From: Candidatus Harrisonbacteria bacterium CG10_big_fil_rev_8_21_14_0_10_40_38
GTDB lineage: Bacteria > Patescibacteriota > Minisyncoccia > UBA6257 > 1-14-0-10-40-38
Direction: 5' to 3'
Length of the DNA stretch: 55,080 nucleotides
NCBI GenBank assembly: GCA_002773535.1
Contig: PFAZ01000009.1
Coordinates: 100,739-155,818 of the forward strand
Shown: positions 3,354 to 41,300 of the stretch, one piece after another
Numbering within the stretch: position 1 is the first letter of the stretch
How the letters are laid out: each line of letters begins with the position of its first letter
Notes under the pieces: generated by a model
Databases searched by the model: none
Told to the model about the DNA's origin: nothing
The model's input: the letters and a program-made list of their open reading frames with translations, nothing else
Position numbers and translations under genes: made by a program

Positions 3354-4115
3354 ATGTTTCACGAAATTTTTTATCGTCCTCTTCTAAACGCGCTTATATT
3401 TTTATATGAGCACGTAGCATTTAATGATTTTGGTGTAGCTATAATACTCCTGACTATTATTATTCGTCTTATATTATATCCATTATTTTATAAAAGCTTT
3501 AAAAGTCAGGCTCTAATTCAGAAAATACAACCAGAAATAAAAAAAATACAAAAGGAATTTAAGGATAAAAGAGATGTTCAAGCAGAAAAGCTTATGAACT
3601 TGTATCGAGATCATGGTATAAGCCCTTTTTCTACTTTGTTTCCGATATTTGCCATAATTATACAATTACCAATCCTTATAGCTCTCTATAGGGTCTTTTT
3701 AGGAGGTATTACCCCAGAGGTTTTTAGTGATTTGTATTCATTTGTCGCAAAACCAGATGTTTTGAATACTTCGTTGTTTGGCTTGATAAACCTTGAAAAT
3801 CCTAATATACTCATTGTTGGTTTAGCTGCAGTTTTTCAATATATACAAGGAAAGGTTAGTGTTGCCTCTCTTAAGGTGCGATCTAATAGTCCGGAAATTG
3901 AGGCGGCGGAGCGAATGGGAAAGACAATGGTTTTTGTAGGTCCATTGCTTACAATTGTTTTCTTTTATTCTCTTCCGGCGGCGATTGGTGTTTATTGGAC
4001 AACAACTTCGGTTTTTTCAATATTGCAGCAGCTATATATAAATAAAACCGCAAAAGATACTATTCATAAAAACCAAAATGGAGAATCTTCAGACAACAAT
4101 CCAACAACTTCTTGA
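3354..4115 (+). CDS. yidC: Membrane protein insertase YidC/Oxa1, short type
   Basis: GVAIILLTIIIRLILYPL, IQPEIKKIQ, IQLPILIALY, YWTTTSVFSILQQ. Confidence 0.95.
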   Translation: MFHEIFYRPLLNALIFLYEHVAFNDFGVAIILLTIIIRLILYPLFYKSFKSQALIQKIQPEIKKIQKEFKDKRDVQAEKLMNLYRDHGISPFSTLFPIFAIIIQLPILIALYRVFLGGITPEVFSDLYSFVAKPDVLNTSLFGLINLENPNILIVGLAAVFQYIQGKVSVASLKVRSNSPEIEAAERMGKTMVFVGPLLTIVFFYSLPAAIGVYWTTTSVFSILQQLYINKTAKDTIHKNQNGESSDNNPTTS

Positions 4116-10160: not shown

Positions 10161-10243
10161 AATTAGTTTAAAATTAAAAAATCAAAATGAAAAACGACAA
10201 TTTAAAATGCAAAAAGTTTTGATATTTTGCAGATAATATAATT
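10161..10243. repeat. Degenerate A-rich/T-rich heptamer inverted-repeat element
   Basis: AAAATTA AAAAATC AAAATGA AAAACGA CAATTTA AAATGCA followed by TTTTGATA TTTTGCA. Confidence 0.55.
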
Positions 10244-18745: not shown

Positions 18746-19805
18746 GGTAATCTTTTTTGGTATTAGTACTATACTCCAAAAACTGCAAAGAAGCAGTGTT
18801 ATATCAGCGGTAATTCCTGTAGCGCTTGTAATAGCTGGTTTGTTTGCGGGATTTATTAGTTCTAGTGACCCATCCGTACTTTCGGCAAAGTCACAGAACG
18901 TTGTTTTTGGCGGCCCTGAAAGCGTGGCTTTTGCAGCTACACCTAAAGAGGGTCTCGCTTTATTTGAGAGCGTTACGCCATCTTCAGAGATTGGTCTCGA
19001 AGGCACATTGCCCGAGGAACAAGTTGCGTCGTTAGTTGGTGATGCATATCTTGTGAATCCAAATCACCCTCTTTCAGGAACACTTCCTACGAGAGGAGAT
19101 ACTTTAATACATACGGTACAGTCGGGAGATACTCTTTCCGGGATTGCTGCGGAGTATGGGATTTCTTTAAATACGCTCCTTTGGGCAAATTCTGATAAGT
19201 TGAAGGGAGGGTACTTACCAGTCGGAACAGAGGTTATCATCCTCCCTGTTTCTGGGGTACTACATAGAGCGCGAGAAGGTGAGACTATTAGATCAATTTC
19301 CGCTTTGTATGGAGTTCCTGAGGAAAAAATTATTGAGGTAAATAGATCTTCTGTGTCGCAACTTGTTGCGGGTACTATGCTTGTTATTCCCGGTGGGAGA
19401 CCAAGGACGACGCCTTCGTCTCAAAGTGTAAAATTACCTTCAATTCCTGGGTATTTTACTCTTCCTGCTACCGGCTGGAATTGGGGAGAGATTCATCCAT
19501 ATAATGCAGTGGATATAGCGAATGCATGTGGTACGCCTATATACGCTGCTCAAGAGGGGCTTGTTACAAGAATCGGGTCGCCGACGCAGTGGAATGGCGG
19601 ATATGGTGGTTTTATTGAAATAGAACACCCAAATAAAACACTTACAAGATACGCGCACCTGCAGGAAATACTTGTTGCTCCGGGTGATTATGTTTCTAAA
19701 AAACAAAACATCGCAGAGATGGGAAATACAGGGAATGTTCACGGAAACCCTGGGTGTCATCTCCACTTCGAAGTTGACGGAGCAAAAAATCCTCTTGCAA
19801 GGTAA
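18744..19805 (+). CDS. LysM plus M23 family peptidoglycan endopeptidase
   Basis: LysM HTVQSGDTLSGIA; M23 HPYNAVD, YAHL, HLHFEV. Start uncertain. Confidence 0.92.
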   Translation: MVIFFGISTILQKLQRSSVISAVIPVALVIAGLFAGFISSSDPSVLSAKSQNVVFGGPESVAFAATPKEGLALFESVTPSSEIGLEGTLPEEQVASLVGDAYLVNPNHPLSGTLPTRGDTLIHTVQSGDTLSGIAAEYGISLNTLLWANSDKLKGGYLPVGTEVIILPVSGVLHRAREGETIRSISALYGVPEEKIIEVNRSSVSQLVAGTMLVIPGGRPRTTPSSQSVKLPSIPGYFTLPATGWNWGEIHPYNAVDIANACGTPIYAAQEGLVTRIGSPTQWNGGYGGFIEIEHPNKTLTRYAHLQEILVAPGDYVSKKQNIAEMGNTGNVHGNPGCHLHFEVDGAKNPLAR

Positions 19806-29215: not shown

Positions 29216-30976
29216 ATGCCAACCAATGAGGATATTGCTAAAGTTCTGGGCGAGATTGGAGAATATCTTGCTATGCAGGATGTTCCATTTAAACCACGTG
29301 CATATGAAAAAGTAGCAGAAACAATCAGATCTCTTTCTGAATCTGTTTCGGAGATGTATAAGAAAGGCGGTTTATCTGCTGTTAAAAATATTCCCGGTGT
29401 TGGTGCGTCGATCGCAGAGAGTATTGAGGAATTTATTAAAAAAGGAAAAATCGCTTATCACGAAGAACTAAAACGAGGAGCGCCTGTAAATTTAGCGGAG
29501 TTGAGAAGGGTTGAGGGTTTAGGTCCGAGAAAGATTAAAATACTTTATCAGAAACTTGGAATCAGGACACTTTCTGATCTTAAGAAGGCCGCGACTAGTC
29601 ATAAGATAAGATCTCTCGAGGGATTTGGAGAGAAGACGGAAGAGAATATATTAAAAGGGATTGAATTTGTTAATGCATCAGGTGACCGAAAAATTCTTGG
29701 ATTTATTTTGCCGGATATTAGAGTTATTGAGGATAACTTAAAAAAAATAAAAGGAGTGAGCAAAGTTGTGGTTGCTGGGTCTACAAGAAGGAGGCGTGAG
29801 ACAATAGGAGATATTGATTTTCTAGTGGTTTCAGAAAAATCGGAACCGGTTATGGATTTTTTTGTGAATATGCCCGAGGTTGCAAGGATCATGGCGAAGG
29901 GACCTACAAAATCAATGGTTCACCTTAAGAGTGGTCTTGATGCGGATATAAGAGTTGTGCCAAAAGAGTCATATGGTGCGGCGCTTAATTATTTTACAGG
30001 CTCAAAGGATCATAACGTTGCGCTTCGGAAACTTGCAATAGAAAAGGGTTATAAATTGAATGAATATGGTCTTTTTAAGATTAAAGGAAAAGGTGGGGGC
30101 GAGGAAAAAATTGCCGGTGATACCGAAGAGGGAATTTATAAAGCGCTTGGTCTTCCATATATAGAACCCGAGCTTAGGGAAATGATGGGGGAAATAGAGG
30201 CGGCAAAATCGGGAAAGCTGCCGAAACTTATAGACTATAAAGATTTAAAAGGTGATCTTCAAGTACAGACTTCGTGGACTGACGGGTCTGCGTCTATAGA
30301 AGAGATGGCTATTGCAGCTTACGAACAGGGGCTTTCTTATATGGTTGTGACTGACCACACAAAGCGTCTCGCGATGACTCATGGGCTTGATGACGAGAGT
30401 GTTTTAAAACAAGGGAAGGAGATAGATAAGGTAAATCAGAAATTAAAAGAAAAAAAGATTAAATTTTATATTTTAAAGGGAACGGAGTGCGATATTTTAA
30501 AAGACGGCAGTTTGGATTTATCTGACAAGGTATTAGCTACGCTGGATGTTGTCGGGGTGTCGGTGCATTCGTATTTTAATCTTCCGATTAATGAGCAGAC
30601 AAAAAGAGTGGAAAAGGCAATAAGAAATAAAAATGTAGATATATTTTTTCACCCTACGGGAAGACTTATCAATAAGAGGAGCGCCTACGAAATAGATATG
30701 GAAAGAATTATCAAAGTTGCCGGGGAGACTGGAACAGTCCTTGAGATTGATGCGTATCCTGACAGGCTAGATATGAATTATGAATATATAAGACAATGTG
30801 TTGAATCTGGGGTGAAGATGTCTATTGATTCTGATGCTCATGCGACGACCCACTTTCAATATTTGGAATTTGGCATAGATCAGGCTAGGCGAGGTTGGGC
30901 TGAAAAGGAGGATATCATAAATGCTTGGCCGATGGAGAAAATGCTTTCGATGCTGAAAGGGGAGACTAACGACTAA
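29216..30976 (+). CDS. polX: DNA polymerase X with PHP domain
   Basis: KPRAYEKVA, GLGPRK, GSTRR, GDIDFL, FTGSKDHN, TDH, DSDAH. Confidence 0.93.
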   Translation: MPTNEDIAKVLGEIGEYLAMQDVPFKPRAYEKVAETIRSLSESVSEMYKKGGLSAVKNIPGVGASIAESIEEFIKKGKIAYHEELKRGAPVNLAELRRVEGLGPRKIKILYQKLGIRTLSDLKKAATSHKIRSLEGFGEKTEENILKGIEFVNASGDRKILGFILPDIRVIEDNLKKIKGVSKVVVAGSTRRRRETIGDIDFLVVSEKSEPVMDFFVNMPEVARIMAKGPTKSMVHLKSGLDADIRVVPKESYGAALNYFTGSKDHNVALRKLAIEKGYKLNEYGLFKIKGKGGGEEKIAGDTEEGIYKALGLPYIEPELREMMGEIEAAKSGKLPKLIDYKDLKGDLQVQTSWTDGSASIEEMAIAAYEQGLSYMVVTDHTKRLAMTHGLDDESVLKQGKEIDKVNQKLKEKKIKFYILKGTECDILKDGSLDLSDKVLATLDVVGVSVHSYFNLPINEQTKRVEKAIRNKNVDIFFHPTGRLINKRSAYEIDMERIIKVAGETGTVLEIDAYPDRLDMNYEYIRQCVESGVKMSIDSDAHATTHFQYLEFGIDQARRGWAEKEDIINAWPMEKMLSMLKGETND

Positions 30977-31055
30977 AGACTAACAACTGACGACTGAAAA
31001 CTTACAACTTACAACTAACGACTGAAAACTTACAACTTACAACTAACGACTGGCG
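30965..31055. repeat. Array of 13 ACTNNNN heptamers
   Basis: ACTAACG ACTAAAG ACTAACA ACTGACG (ACTGAAA ACTTACA ACTTACA ACTAACG)x2 ACTGGCG. Confidence 0.95.
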
Positions 31056-31104
31056 ACAATGGTGCTTTTGGGTGGGATGTGTTATGATAGGCGGCATCAG
31101 ACAT

Positions 31105-31650
31105 ATGCAGAAAATTCTTTCAGCAGGAATCATTGTTTTTCGTAGGACGAGAGAGGGGGTAAAATTTTTAATCCTTTATCACGGAAGAAACTACTGGAAT
31201 TTTCCAAAAGGTAAGATTGAAAGCGAGGAGAGGAGCTGGCAGACTGCCCTTAGGGAAGTAAGGGAGGAAACCGGGCTAAAATCTACAGAGCTTTCGTTTG
31301 TTGGCGGGTTTAAGACCCATGAGCGTTTTACCTATCGAAGAGGAAAAGACAGAGTTTTTAAGTTGGTAACTCTTTATCTCGCAGAAACCAATCAGCCCAG
31401 AATAGTCGTTTCCCATGAGCATGAGGGGTATGGCTGGTTTACGTTTGGTGAGGCAAAAAAAGTTTTATCAAAGTACCAAGATAGTTTAAATATTCTTACA
31501 AGAGCATATGACTTCCTTCGAAGCAAAGGTATACCAAGTCGTGAGCGAAATACCCAAGGGCCAAGTACTCACGTACAAAGAAGTAGCCATCCTCGCAGGC
31601 CGGTCCCGAGCGTACAGGGCAGTGGGGAACATAATGAACAAAAATCCTGA
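31105..31650 (+). CDS. NUDIX hydrolase (Ap4A hydrolase-like)
   Basis: SAGIIVF, WNFPKGKIE..ALREVREETGL Nudix box, SHEH. Likely ATG 31105. Confidence 0.9.
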   Translation: MQKILSAGIIVFRRTREGVKFLILYHGRNYWNFPKGKIESEERSWQTALREVREETGLKSTELSFVGGFKTHERFTYRRGKDRVFKLVTLYLAETNQPRIVVSHEHEGYGWFTFGEAKKVLSKYQDSLNILTRAYDFLRSKGIPSRERNTQGPSTHVQRSSHPRRPVPSVQGSGEHNEQKS

Positions 31651-33015: not shown

Positions 33016-33050
33016 GTAAAATGTAAAATGCGACATGAAATATGAAAATA
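33016..33050. repeat. Five degenerate heptamers upstream of infC
   Basis: GTAAAAT GTAAAAT GCGACAT GAAATAT GAAAATA. Confidence 0.55.
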
Positions 33051-38333: not shown

Positions 38334-41300
38334 ATGCTTAGAGATATCAAACAATTTTTTTTGCCGGAAATAGAAGAAAAGGTTCTTTCTTATTGGAAGG
38401 AGAACCAGATTTTTGAAAAATCGGTAAATAAAAAAAGATCTAAAACTTTTGTTTTTTATGAGGGTCCGCCTACTGCAAATGGTAAGCCGGGGATTCATCA
38501 TGTGCTTGCGAGGAGTTTTAAGGATATCGTATTGCGATACAAAACGATGAGAGGGTACTCGGTTCCGCGAAGAGCCGGGTGGGATACTCATGGGTTGCCT
38601 GTCGAGATAGCTGTAGAGAAAGAGCTTGGACTAAAATCGAAAAAAGAAATCGAAACCTATGGGGTGGCTGAGTTTAATAAGAAGTGCAAGGAATCGGTTT
38701 GGAAATATAAAGAAGACTGGGAGAGGCTGACCGAAAGAATCGGGTTTTGGCTAGATATGAAAAACCCATATATCACTTATGAGGCTTCTTATATGGAAAC
38801 TCTGTGGTGGATTTTGCAAAGCGCCTGGAAAAAGAAGCTACTTTATAAAGGGCATAGGATAGTGCCGTGGTGCACAAGATGCGGGACAGCTTTGTCTTCA
38901 CATGAGTTGGCGCAAGGGTATCACGAAGTGACTGATACTTCGGTGTATGTGAAATTTAGAATTAAGAATAATGAATTAAGAATTAAGGGGCATGGTTTGC
39001 CGGTTTATATATTATCGTGGACGACGACACCTTGGACGCTGCCGGGTAACGTTGCTCTAGCTGTAGGGGAAGATATTGATTATGTTGCGATTCAGAAAGA
39101 TGGTGAGATTTTAATCGCTGCAAAAGAATCTCCTTTGGGTAAAGAAGTAAGCGAGTCGGGGGAGGTAAAAGAAAATCTAAAAGGGAAAGACTTAATCGGA
39201 TTGGAATATGAGTCGCTTTTTGAAGTACCTTTTCTTAAAGGTGAAAAATCTTATCGTGTTTATGCTGCTGACTTTGTGACAACGACTGATGGAACGGGTG
39301 TGGTTCATACGGCTGTGATGTATGGGGAAGATGACTATAAGCTTGGTTCTCAAATCGGATTGCCCCAAGCTCACACAGTTGATGAAGAGGGAAGATTTGT
39401 TTCGCAAGTTGGGGAACTAAAACACATGTACGCAAAAGCTCCTGAAACAGAGTCAAAAATAATCGAGCTTCTTTCGGGGAGAGGATTTTTGCTTAAAAAA
39501 CAGCCGTATACTCACGAATATCCTTTTTGTTGGAGATGCGATACACCACTTCTCTACTACGCGAGAGAATCGTGGTTTATAAGGATGAGTTCTCTTCGGG
39601 ATAAGCTCATAGAAAAGAATAAAAATATTTCTTGGACTCCAGAACATCTTCAGGAAGGAAGGTTTGGGGAGTGGCTCCGTGAAGTAAAGGATTGGAATCT
39701 TTCACGCGAGAGATTTTGGGGGACGCCGCTTCCTGTGTGGGAGTGTTCTTCGTGTGGTGAGACTGAAGTTATAGGCGGAGTTTCTGATTTAAAGAAAAAG
39801 GGAATTGTTCCGAATGAATTTTTCTTTATAAGGCATGGGGAGTCTGATCACAATGTAAAAAGATTTACCGGCCCTGCTGATGATTCGGAGGGACATGCGT
39901 CAAACCTAACAGAGAAGGGACGTGAACAGGTTGCGAGAGCTGCAAGGTCACTGCGGTCAAAGAAAATTGATATCATCATTACTTCGCCTTTAAAAAGAGC
40001 TAAGGAGACGGCAGAGATTGTCGGGTTTTATACTGGCGCGCGCATAATAACAAGCGAGCTTATACGGGAGATAAACCCCGGATCTTTTGTTGGAAAAACA
40101 ATTGCGGAGCATAATGCGTTTTTTAAAAATCGTCTTGATAGATTTAATATAGCGCCTGAAGGAGGTGAGACGTGGCGTGAGGTGATGAGGAGACTCGCAA
40201 AGTTTGTAAAAGAAGTTCAAGAAAATCATCCAGGAAAGAAAATCGTTGTTGTAAGTCACGGCGACCCTTTATGGATTTTAAAGGGTATGTACGAGGCAAA
40301 ATCGAAGGAGGATTTTTTGTCCGTGACTTATCCGAAAGTCGGAAAAATTTATCCTATTTCTGTTTCTGCTGTGCCATTTAACACAGATGGCGAAGTTGAT
40401 ATTCATAAGCCATTTATCGACAGCGTTCTTTTGAAGTGTCCGAAGTGTTCGGATTCTATGAGGAGAGTTAAAGAAATAATTGATGTTTGGTTTGATTCGG
40501 GTGGTATGCCTTTTGCTCAAGCGCATTTTCCTTTTAGTAAAAAACTAAAACTTAAAGGGGGATCTGAATTTAAATTTGTTTATCCTGCTGATTATATCTG
40601 TGAGGCGGTTGATCAGACTCGAGGATGGTTTTACACACTACTTGCTGAAGCTGTTGTTTTAGGAAAACCTGCGCCGTATAAGAATGTGATTTCTTTGGGT
40701 CATGTTCTTGATAAGAATGGGCAGAAGATGTCCAAGTCGAAAGGAAATGTTATTGATCCATGGGATGCGGCAGATAGGCACGGAGTTGATGTAATTAGGT
40801 GGTATTTTTATACGGTTAATGACCCCGGTGAGCCGAAGAGATTTAATGAGGCTGATGTTATGAAGACTTATAGAAGTTTTCATCTTCTTGCTTATAACTC
40901 ATATTCGTTTTTGAGAACTTATCTGTCGCCATCTGTTTCTAAAACCGATCCGAAAAAATCTCCAAATATTTTGGATAAATGGATTCTTGTTCTGTGGAAT
41001 GAAACAATCACTTCTGTTACAGCTTCTCTTGAAAAGTATCAGATAGGTACTGCGGCAAAGGCGTTGGATTCTTTTCTTGGTGATTTATCACGTTGGTACA
41101 TAAGGCGTTCGAGAAAGAGGTTTTCTGATTCTTCGAGTGAGGACTTTGCTTTTGCTGCTGCGACTTTAACGTTTGTGCTTCGAGATTTTTCAAAGGCGCT
41201 TGCTCCGTTCTGTCCGTTTATTTCTGAGGCGATTTATAAGTCGATTATCAATGGAGCAAAAGAAAAAGGGGAGTTGTCGGTTCATCTTGAGGATTGGCCT

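Follow-up and report, generated by a model that had tools for sequence, protein, structure and literature searches.

The 55,080-nt stretch of DNA analysed here (hereafter the window; C12:100739-155818) comes from a Candidatus Harrisonbacteria bacterium, an ultra-small groundwater organism whose assembly spans 760 kb in 16 contigs and is 99.8% complete. Between a gene for a PolX-family DNA polymerase and a gene for a Nudix hydrolase it carries a tandem array of 13 heptamers, each of which opens with ACT. Genes were called by us as longest open reading frames (ORFs), with approximate start positions. The features of the locus are the following.

29216 to 30976, + strand: PolX-family DNA polymerase gene, 586 aa (ORF list, translation, Pfam)
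30965 to 31055, + strand: heptamer array, 13 units, consensus ACT-D-A-M-R, weight-matrix score 90.8
30974 to 30976, + strand: polX stop codon TAA, positions 3-5 of unit 2
30993 to 31020, + strand: 28-bp (four-unit) block, first copy (identity check; period 28 in Tandem Repeats Finder, TRF)
31021 to 31048, + strand: 28-bp block, second copy, a 28-mer identical to the first
31056 to 31104, + strand: rest of the spacer, G/T-rich, ahead of the likely Nudix start (sequence)
31105 to 31650, + strand: Nudix hydrolase gene (Pfam PF00293; N-termini of relatives)

The 13 units stand head to tail. Units 1 to 7 are ACTAACG, ACTAAAG, ACTAACA, ACTGACG, ACTGAAA and twice ACTTACA, and units 8 to 13 are ACTAACG, ACTGAAA, twice ACTTACA, ACTAACG and ACTGGCG. 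A sequence-only reading of the window had described 13 ACT-initial heptamers, an exact duplication of a four-unit block, a polX stop inside unit 2 and a C-richness opposed to the local skew, and all four observations were borne out. TRF reported the array both at period 7, with 12.4 copies, and at period 28, with 2.6 copies of 95% identity and a score of 134; the array contains 23 C and 11 G, versus 980 C and 1440 G in the surrounding 6 kb. Chance is ruled out as its origin: phased trinucleotides run over 13 units in the array, and 20 shuffled versions of the window yielded longest runs of just 3-5 units. The exact 28-bp duplication probably reflects a recent slippage-type event. No further copy of the array flanks was detected within the genome and no phage match was obtained for the array, and a phage or mobile origin was dropped on these grounds. 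A search of region 30700-31400 with the Rfam 15 covariance models gave nothing at E <= 1, so that a described RNA family was also dropped as its identity. A scan of the + strand of the polX-Nudix interval revealed no consensus promoter or terminator; by eye, a TG-n-TATGAT stretch is visible at 31080-31088, in the G/T-rich remainder of the spacer.

Comparison with relatives gave indications on the history of this copy. The polX product contains the Pfam domains pol-beta thumb and palm, HHH and PHP, and shares 58-65% identity with its counterparts in Candidatus Harrisonbacteria, Jorgensenbacteria, Wolfebacteria and Colwellbacteria genomes. In these relatives the protein ends with ...EKMLKxLK plus 0-4 residues, about five residues earlier than here. 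The tail of the present PolX has five extra codons (GETND), the last three of which consist of array units, and these three codons and the stop codon fall within the array. On the other side, translation from ATG 31105 gives MQKILSAGII..., in agreement with the Nudix N-termini of relatives, and the frame is open already from GTG 31072. This likely start lies 49 nt past the last array unit, and 128 nt separate it from the polX stop, versus only 3-18 nt in four relatives (L020, L035, L041 and L105). Because the polX of relatives ends earlier and their spacers are so short, the array appears to have expanded a short intercistronic spacer, and now supplies the polX stop. Among the polX loci of 160 relatives, only one (L017) has an ACT-type tract 3' of the polX stop. 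It is part of a ~115-nt insertion that begins directly at a stop codon and has no counterpart in the sister locus L016. The closest PolX relatives in genome and metagenome collections are just 65% identical; a degenerate DNA pattern of the polX end gave no match in metagenomes, and no close strain was found.

The same two loci, from Wolfebacteria-like relatives, have another peculiarity (L016:4725-4800, L017:4745-4935). Behind the polX stop comes a GC hairpin, and behind the hairpin the final ~10 polX codons recur as a dead duplicate, a gene end that has been displaced. In L017, the ~115-nt insert stands directly after the stop of this remnant and has an inverted pair of heptamer arrays at its borders.

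The array is not alone in its genome. A search for ACT or AGT phased at period 7 detected 24 arrays with at least four exact units, and a scan with a weight matrix built from 129 units raised the number to 32. Among these, the polX array is the longest and has the top score, 4-5 units being the commonest length elsewhere. In all units the ACT triplet is invariant, whereas positions 4, 6 and 7 vary, giving ~30 unit types genome-wide. Position 4 is D (A 34%, T 42%, G 23%, C 2%), position 5 is A in 89% of units, position 6 is M (A 51%, C 33%) and position 7 is R (A 62%, G 32%). A pattern of six phased ACTs, which left the N4 part unconstrained, had 19 matches in this genome, versus 0-5 per genome in 40 relatives, and the reversed control pattern had none here. 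The preferences within N4 were alike in three other genera of the same family (G007, G008, G009) and in one genome of another family (G028), positions 4 and 7 being free of C and position 5 being mostly A. In relatives, the arrays are found in mixed contexts, ahead of starts, behind stops and antisense.

The spacer following pilC was also compared with its orthologs. An ACT array is present here, a GAATAAG/GAATTAA-type array is present in G005 (L186, G005:C6), and eight other family members have none; one further locus broke off before the stop. The G005 array, from a different genus and a different heptamer family, likewise begins at the stop codon. Since the orthologous spacers of polX and of pilC differ among relatives, arrays seem to come and go, starting at stops regardless of the unit.

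Positions of the arrays relative to genes were then inspected. Eighteen arrays lie behind a co-oriented gene, and 11 of them fall within the initial tenth of their spacer (binomial p = 1.6e-7; Kolmogorov-Smirnov p = 9e-6), and in five of the 18 the stop codon is inside the array. In spacers with two arrays the second extends to the next start; a start codon is reached only by such second arrays, in two spacers. The ATG of a PspC-domain gene is 2 nt past an array, with no purine-rich motif ahead of it. Many arrays precede terminators or spacers of 70-350 nt, and several are followed by an intrinsic-terminator-like hairpin; these last are therefore 3' untranslated RNA. No common function was found among the genes flanking arrays. 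The neighbours (UvrA, PilC, a pilin-like protein, an ABC-2 permease, Sua5, RsmE, RmuC, a glycoside hydrolase and PolX) are diverse, and a functional theme was not retained. A 650-nt gene-free spacer contains, downstream of two ACT arrays, two consecutive small structured transcription units (L093:2950-3210, minus strand; G000:C15:~148950-149210), both of which have a promoter of the TTGACA type and a GC hairpin that leads into a T-run. They had no Rfam match at the gathering score, and Rfam found only a tRNA in ten other array-bearing loci.

As RNA, the arrays are expected to be unstructured. Of 200 dinucleotide shuffles of region 30950-31110, 199 folded better than the region itself (z = +2.3), whose centroid structure has zero pairs within the array, and the minimum free energy is 0 for most arrays. 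As read from the unit types, ATG, GTG and TTG are almost absent from the units, and purine-rich runs are absent. Positions 3-5 are TAA or TGA in 57% of units, which provides stops in all three frames and closes every frame within a few units. In genes with arrays, all frames are stopped within ~32 nt (median) of the gene's own stop, versus ~126 nt for the other genes of the same strand, the one that is G-rich at third codon positions. The idea that arrays substitute for scarce backup stops on this strand was unsupported, the next-stop distance being equal on both strands.

The proteins that might read such an RNA were searched for in the genome. The Rho_RNA_bind domain was not found, in a search whose control matched nine of 14 reference genomes. 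Cold-shock domain (CSD) proteins, CsrA and Hfq were not found either, and these three were dropped as readers; neither were TRAP and HutP (PF02081, PF09021). S1 domains are present in a 360-aa four-domain protein (C12:58454-59452), in PNPase and in one further protein, which leaves the four-domain ribosomal protein S1 as the sole classic candidate encoded here. The 16S rRNA continues after helix 45 with GACTAATTAAGC (G000:C7:~19660-19700), and CCTCC is nowhere nearby. Ahead of start codons, Shine-Dalgarno-like motifs are hardly enriched (GGAG and AGGA only ~2-fold).

Two further observations concern initiation. Upstream of predicted start codons, TAATTA and AATTAG reach a 4-6-fold peak at -16..-9, and at least 6 nt complementary to the 16S tail occur at -22..-4 in 69 of 703 genes, versus 21-25 in control regions; none of 200 shuffled tails reached 69. 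This organism may use a non-canonical form of Shine-Dalgarno pairing that involves A and U only. The 16S tail itself opens with 7 nt that form an ACT-family unit. Pairing of the array with this tail was rejected: the units match the tail (GACUAA) in sense instead of being its complement, and for this reason they cannot serve as a Shine-Dalgarno-like site.

A preference for period 7 extends beyond the ACT unit. At TRF scores of at least 50, the genome contains 15 arrays of period 7, nine of period 14, 14 of period 21 and three of period 28, versus 0, 1 and 0 for periods 8, 9 and 10. Runs of at least five phased identical trinucleotides number 53 at period 7, versus 2-10 at periods 4-12. Autocorrelation of the intergenic DNA (61 kb) gave self-match peaks at lags 7, 14 and 21, which were still there when the ACT arrays were masked; the self-match at lag 7 was then 0.294, versus ~0.286 at adjacent lags (standard error 0.0019). 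In polX loci of other organisms, most of them from candidate phyla (0.92 Mb in all), periods 7, 14 and 21 dominate too.

Several unrelated units contribute to this excess. Other heptamer families of the genome are GAATTAT/GAATTAA, GTGGAAT/GCGACAT and CTAATT-rich and CCAAAT-rich tracts, and there are young perfect arrays, for example of TTTTGAT and TTTGGAA. In some spacers different families follow one another in a single 7-nt register. Higher-order periods of 14, 21 and 28 nt are present in other arrays, and multiples of the repeat occur in frame within ORFs. Two tracts of other families in the window are the following.

33016 to 33050, + strand: period-7 tract of the GTAAAAT/GCGACAT/GAAATAT family, filling the spacer of two minus-strand ORFs
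38953 to 38987, + strand: five GAATTAA/AATTAAG heptamers (TRF), in frame and in sense orientation in a long ORF

The family of the first tract recurs at C15:103.7 kb. About eight spacers of C15 have composite mosaic modules in common, which adjoin ACT arrays (for example at 56478-56511, 159443-159492 and 170118-170167). They are of three types: a GC-rich segment ending ...CTCGCTTCGCTCGG, a ~80-nt CTAATT/CCAAAT-rich segment and a 38-nt TAAGCCACTAG... segment. CTAATT-rich modules occur on C15 at 149.3, 159.5, 170.2, 229.2 and 290.2 kb. In many relatives, period-7 arrays sit inside the polX ORF itself (for example L117:3197-3231, L027:4191-4223 and L104:2835-2869). These tracts are 30-35 nt long, occur at two recurrent sites (about residues 285 and 400) and differ in unit (AAATTCA, AAGTTAC, AGGGTTT); their appearance is that of heptamers inserted into loops without loss of frame.

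The broader claims of the sequence-only reading can be judged against these data. It had made its case depend on a genome-wide excess of period 7 over periods such as 5, 8 and 10, which was found by TRF, by phased runs and by autocorrelation and which persisted with the ACT arrays masked; it had also asked for an association with gene ends, which is seen in the 11 arrays that crowd the first tenth of their spacers. Of the additional period-7 tracts that it listed, those at 33016, 35456 and 38958 are real, whereas those at 10170 and 41436 are weak and were not reported by TRF at score 30. It had stressed a shared period without shared sequence. Unrelated families do exist, but ~31 other arrays share the unit consensus ACT-D-A-M-R. 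Its proposal of a generating mechanism or of a protein that reads the 7-nt periodicity is reasonable, given the period-7 excess over unrelated families; however, the phenomenon is already in the literature, and Rho, CSD, CsrA, Hfq, HutP and TRAP were not found.

Inspection of the strand on which arrays lie revealed a marked polarity. In 31 of the 32 arrays, ACT is read on the strand whose third codon positions are rich in G (+ for C12, - for C15 and C7). Three ACT arrays located between genes of the other strand, and thus antisense, retain the same polarity. The GAATTAT family is polar as well, with eight of nine arrays, and 25 versus 4 heptamer copies, on the G-rich strand; of its G-rich-strand arrays, three stand between two genes of opposite orientation and a fourth has such a gene as one of its neighbours. 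For the two families together, all six arrays between two other-strand genes keep the polarity. ACT arrays are also 7-10 times more frequent behind co-oriented genes than elsewhere. Polarity therefore tracks the DNA strand, and abundance peaks behind co-oriented genes.

The skew that defines this strand is itself unusual. Computed per contig on the + strand, the third-position GC skew has one sign per contig, for genes of both orientations. On C12 it steps from +0.23 to +0.41 at ~104.6 kb (about window position 3880), beside dnaA (C12:101988-103451), and on C15 from -0.24 to -0.37 at ~91 kb, the terminus-like point where gene orientation converges. Each step amounts to ~10.6 standard errors and changes the size of the skew, never its sign. 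The 16S rRNA gene, the ribosomal-protein operon and dnaA are all on the C-rich strand. The skew reads as the sum of a constant chromosome-wide component of ~0.31 and a normal replication component of ~0.08. At dnaA, the skew flips sign normally in G005 and does not flip in G002, a second genus.

How may the polX array have arisen? Replication slippage or unequal exchange would create arrays and lengthen them by 7 nt, or multiples thereof, at a time. A generator stepping by 7 nt is suggested by the four-unit duplication, the higher-order periods, the turnover of arrays, the excess of period 7 over unrelated units and the multiples found in frame. The invariant ACT would provide the short homology on which a slipped strand re-anneals: if slippage requires 3-4 nt of terminal homology, units that retain the anchor would be favoured and go on being copied, while positions 4, 6 and 7 drift. 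The present copy would have arisen in a short operonic polX-Nudix spacer, widened it from a few nt to 128 nt and overrun the old polX stop, so that polX now ends five codons later, at the TAA of unit 2. It is most probably co-transcribed with both genes. Its RNA, being unstructured, G-poor, nearly start-free and provided with stops in all frames, would be translationally inert, and this inertness would explain why the array is tolerated directly behind a stop codon. No dedicated reader protein is needed in such a scheme, and the array may be neutral. The uniform polarity would point to a strand-specific step in the making or the retention of arrays. This is our best reading, and in our estimate the arguments are evenly balanced as to whether the array is a heptanucleotide microsatellite that a slippage generator and a tolerant co-transcribed spacer account for. 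Its membership in a family of ~32 arrays of this genome with the degenerate unit ACT-D-A-M-R is shown by the scans.

Several observations weigh against slippage and tolerance. Conservation is specific to columns (ACT invariant, A at position 5 in 89%) at ~32 non-homologous loci, and the same N4 pattern recurs in three further genera of this family and one genome from a different one; a protein reading ACU would account equally well for the conserved columns. Sense arrays are present behind 14 of 383 genes of the G-rich strand and none of 369 genes of the other (Fisher p = 1e-4), which simple tolerance does not predict. Shorter spacers were unsupported as the cause of this absence, the medians being 26 and 18.5 nt. 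The arrays are A/C-rich, whereas spacers of the same strand are otherwise T/G-rich (259 TTTTTG versus 59 CAAAAA), and this persistence counter to the composition bias suggests selection or a very high turnover. Finally, slippage is something that we infer, and close strains were not found in collections.

If the columns are conserved by a reader, the array could be a cis-acting RNA element of the polX-Nudix mRNA, a single-stranded landing pad with a 7-nt pitch for a multi-OB-fold protein, with S1 as the candidate. Such an element might set how well the downstream gene is translated, how ribosomes are handed over once they have terminated, or how stable the mRNA is. We consider this rather doubtful, although the retention of ACT and A5 at ~32 loci, the recurrence of the degenerate unit in other genera and the abutment of 11 of 18 arrays on stops, within the first 10% of the spacer (p = 1.6e-7), all argue for it. 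Second arrays that reach the next start, as at the PspC-domain gene, also agree with it, and the commonest length of 4-5 units could match a four-domain S1. With a 16S rRNA lacking CCUCC and a weak Shine-Dalgarno enrichment, initiation may depend on unstructured leaders. An RNA element of this kind has also been put forward for TAACTGA repeats (PMC4679880) and for Nostoc heptamers (bioRxiv 10.1101/2022.06.06.494920). However, an RNA element does not predict polarity by DNA strand, and three ACT arrays are antisense while genes of the other strand have no sense arrays. In addition, 49 nt separate the array from the Nudix start, many arrays precede terminators or spacers of 70-350 nt, arrays are not conserved at orthologous sites, their flanking genes have no common function, and CSD, CsrA and Hfq were not found. 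At the DNA level, the array could be a polar element, if arrays are made by, or serve, a chromosome-wide strand-specific process that also yields a skew not flipping at the origin, such as unidirectional or strand-displacing replication, or repeated single-strand exposure of one strand. The placement of 31 of 32 ACT arrays on the G-rich strand across three contigs, the polarity of the GAATTAT family (8/9 arrays; 25 versus 4 copies), its maintenance in all six arrays between two other-strand genes, and a skew that keeps its sign through the dnaA region and the convergence of gene orientation, in G002 as well and with G005 flipping, are consistent with it. Nevertheless we hold a polar DNA element to be unlikely. 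Few arrays stand in informative contexts, the 7-10-fold excess behind co-oriented genes indicates that the orientation of transcription matters too, G002 has the skew anomaly yet no long ACT arrays, and both a mechanism and a candidate protein are lacking. That the arrays are markers of such a process in this Patescibacteria group, with unidirectional or strand-displacing replication or recurrent single-strand exposure behind both the skew and the slippage-prone arrays, is a distinctly long shot.

Known regulatory devices were also envisaged, namely a Rho loading site, the target of a TRAP- or HutP-type attenuator, or a phase-variation repeat. Periodic triplets are the layout of TRAP and HutP targets, which the array resembles in this respect, and its RNA is unstructured and has more C than G, all of which would speak for a device of this kind. 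This reading is largely refuted here and is very improbable. The Rho loading (rut) site was rejected since the Rho RNA-binding domain was not found in the 99.8% complete genome; a TRAP or HutP target was rejected since neither protein was found and the conserved sense triplet is ACU, instead of the GAG or UAG that such targets carry with spacers of 2-4 nt. No Rfam family matches the array. As for phase variation, where a change of unit number within a frame or between promoter elements switches expression, the array is located past the polX stop, outside the reading frame. It does not separate promoter hexamers, the scan gave no promoter consensus across it, and only the last three polX codons are affected.

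Taken singly, the polX array adds an ordinary case to a class of bacterial repeats that has gone for decades without an agreed function. The genome, for its part, offers a compact and unusually clean case, with ~30 arrays in 0.76 Mb, a 3-nt anchor, a sharp start at stops and one polarity. As most of the usual RNA-binding candidates were not found, the options narrow to anchored slippage, an S1-type reader and a strand-specific DNA process. Strand polarity, left unexplained by simple tolerance or by an RNA-level role, is the most interesting residue of the analysis. If it is true that polarity follows a strand asymmetry ignoring the origin, the arrays would point to an as yet undescribed trait in the way ultra-small bacteria replicate their chromosome or handle their DNA.

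The array fits in every testable respect the class of heptanucleotide simple-sequence repeats, a type already known from other bacteria and to which the cyanobacterial STRR heptamers belong. As summarised in PMC4679880, Mrazek et al. (2007) found heptanucleotides to be the commonest class of long simple-sequence repeats in prokaryotes, and polymerase slippage was proposed. As far as that summary goes, the likeness to the arrays described here is close, with period 7 over-represented, many units per genome, a mainly intergenic location and slippage as the proposed origin. The differences lie in the host, a Patescibacteria (Harrisonbacteria-like) genome of 0.76 Mb, and in the 3-nt anchor joined to a variable 4-nt part, the abutment on stops and the chromosome-wide uniform polarity.

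Among individual systems, the TAACTGA intergenic direct repeats of marine Beggiatoaceae and of some Cyanobacteria and Bacteroidetes (MacGregor 2015, PMC4679880) come closest. They resemble the ACT arrays in being tandem heptamers of intergenic spacers, mostly in one orientation relative to genes, with stops in all three frames and no binding protein known. Read in the ACT register, TAACTGA becomes ACTGATA, which fits the looser consensus ACT-D-A-H-R of this genome and its relatives. However, the TAACTGA sets are 2-6 exact copies of one unit, a few nt upstream of start codons and overlapping the ribosome-binding site, whereas the array here is degenerate, has 13 units, begins in the last codons of the upstream gene, ends 49 nt before a start and has a polarity that follows the DNA strand. 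ACTGATA accounts for none of its 13 units and for one of the 129 weight-matrix units genome-wide. The array was consequently rejected as a TAACTGA direct repeat, on account of its unit and of its distance from the start codon, although it shares the stops in three frames.

For Nostoc PCC 7120, heptamers upstream of recF and recO are contiguous like the present ones and lie near start codons or promoters; their deletion altered reporter output and a binding partner was proposed (bioRxiv 10.1101/2022.06.06.494920). They differ by their unit, TTTTGAA, and by their location in promoter and leader regions, and the array here is known from sequence alone. The TTTTGAT heptads of the Vibrio cholerae ctxAB promoter (bioRxiv 10.1101/2021.05.14.444153) are tandem 7-bp units whose number matters and which are read by DNA-binding proteins; they show that proteins can use tandem repeats of 7 bp as a binding site. 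These heptads form a double-stranded promoter element upstream of the gene, whereas the polX array stands behind a stop codon and is not spanned by any promoter consensus. The present analysis contributes the stop-codon statistics, the strand-based polarity, the history of the polX copy and the exclusion of candidate readers.

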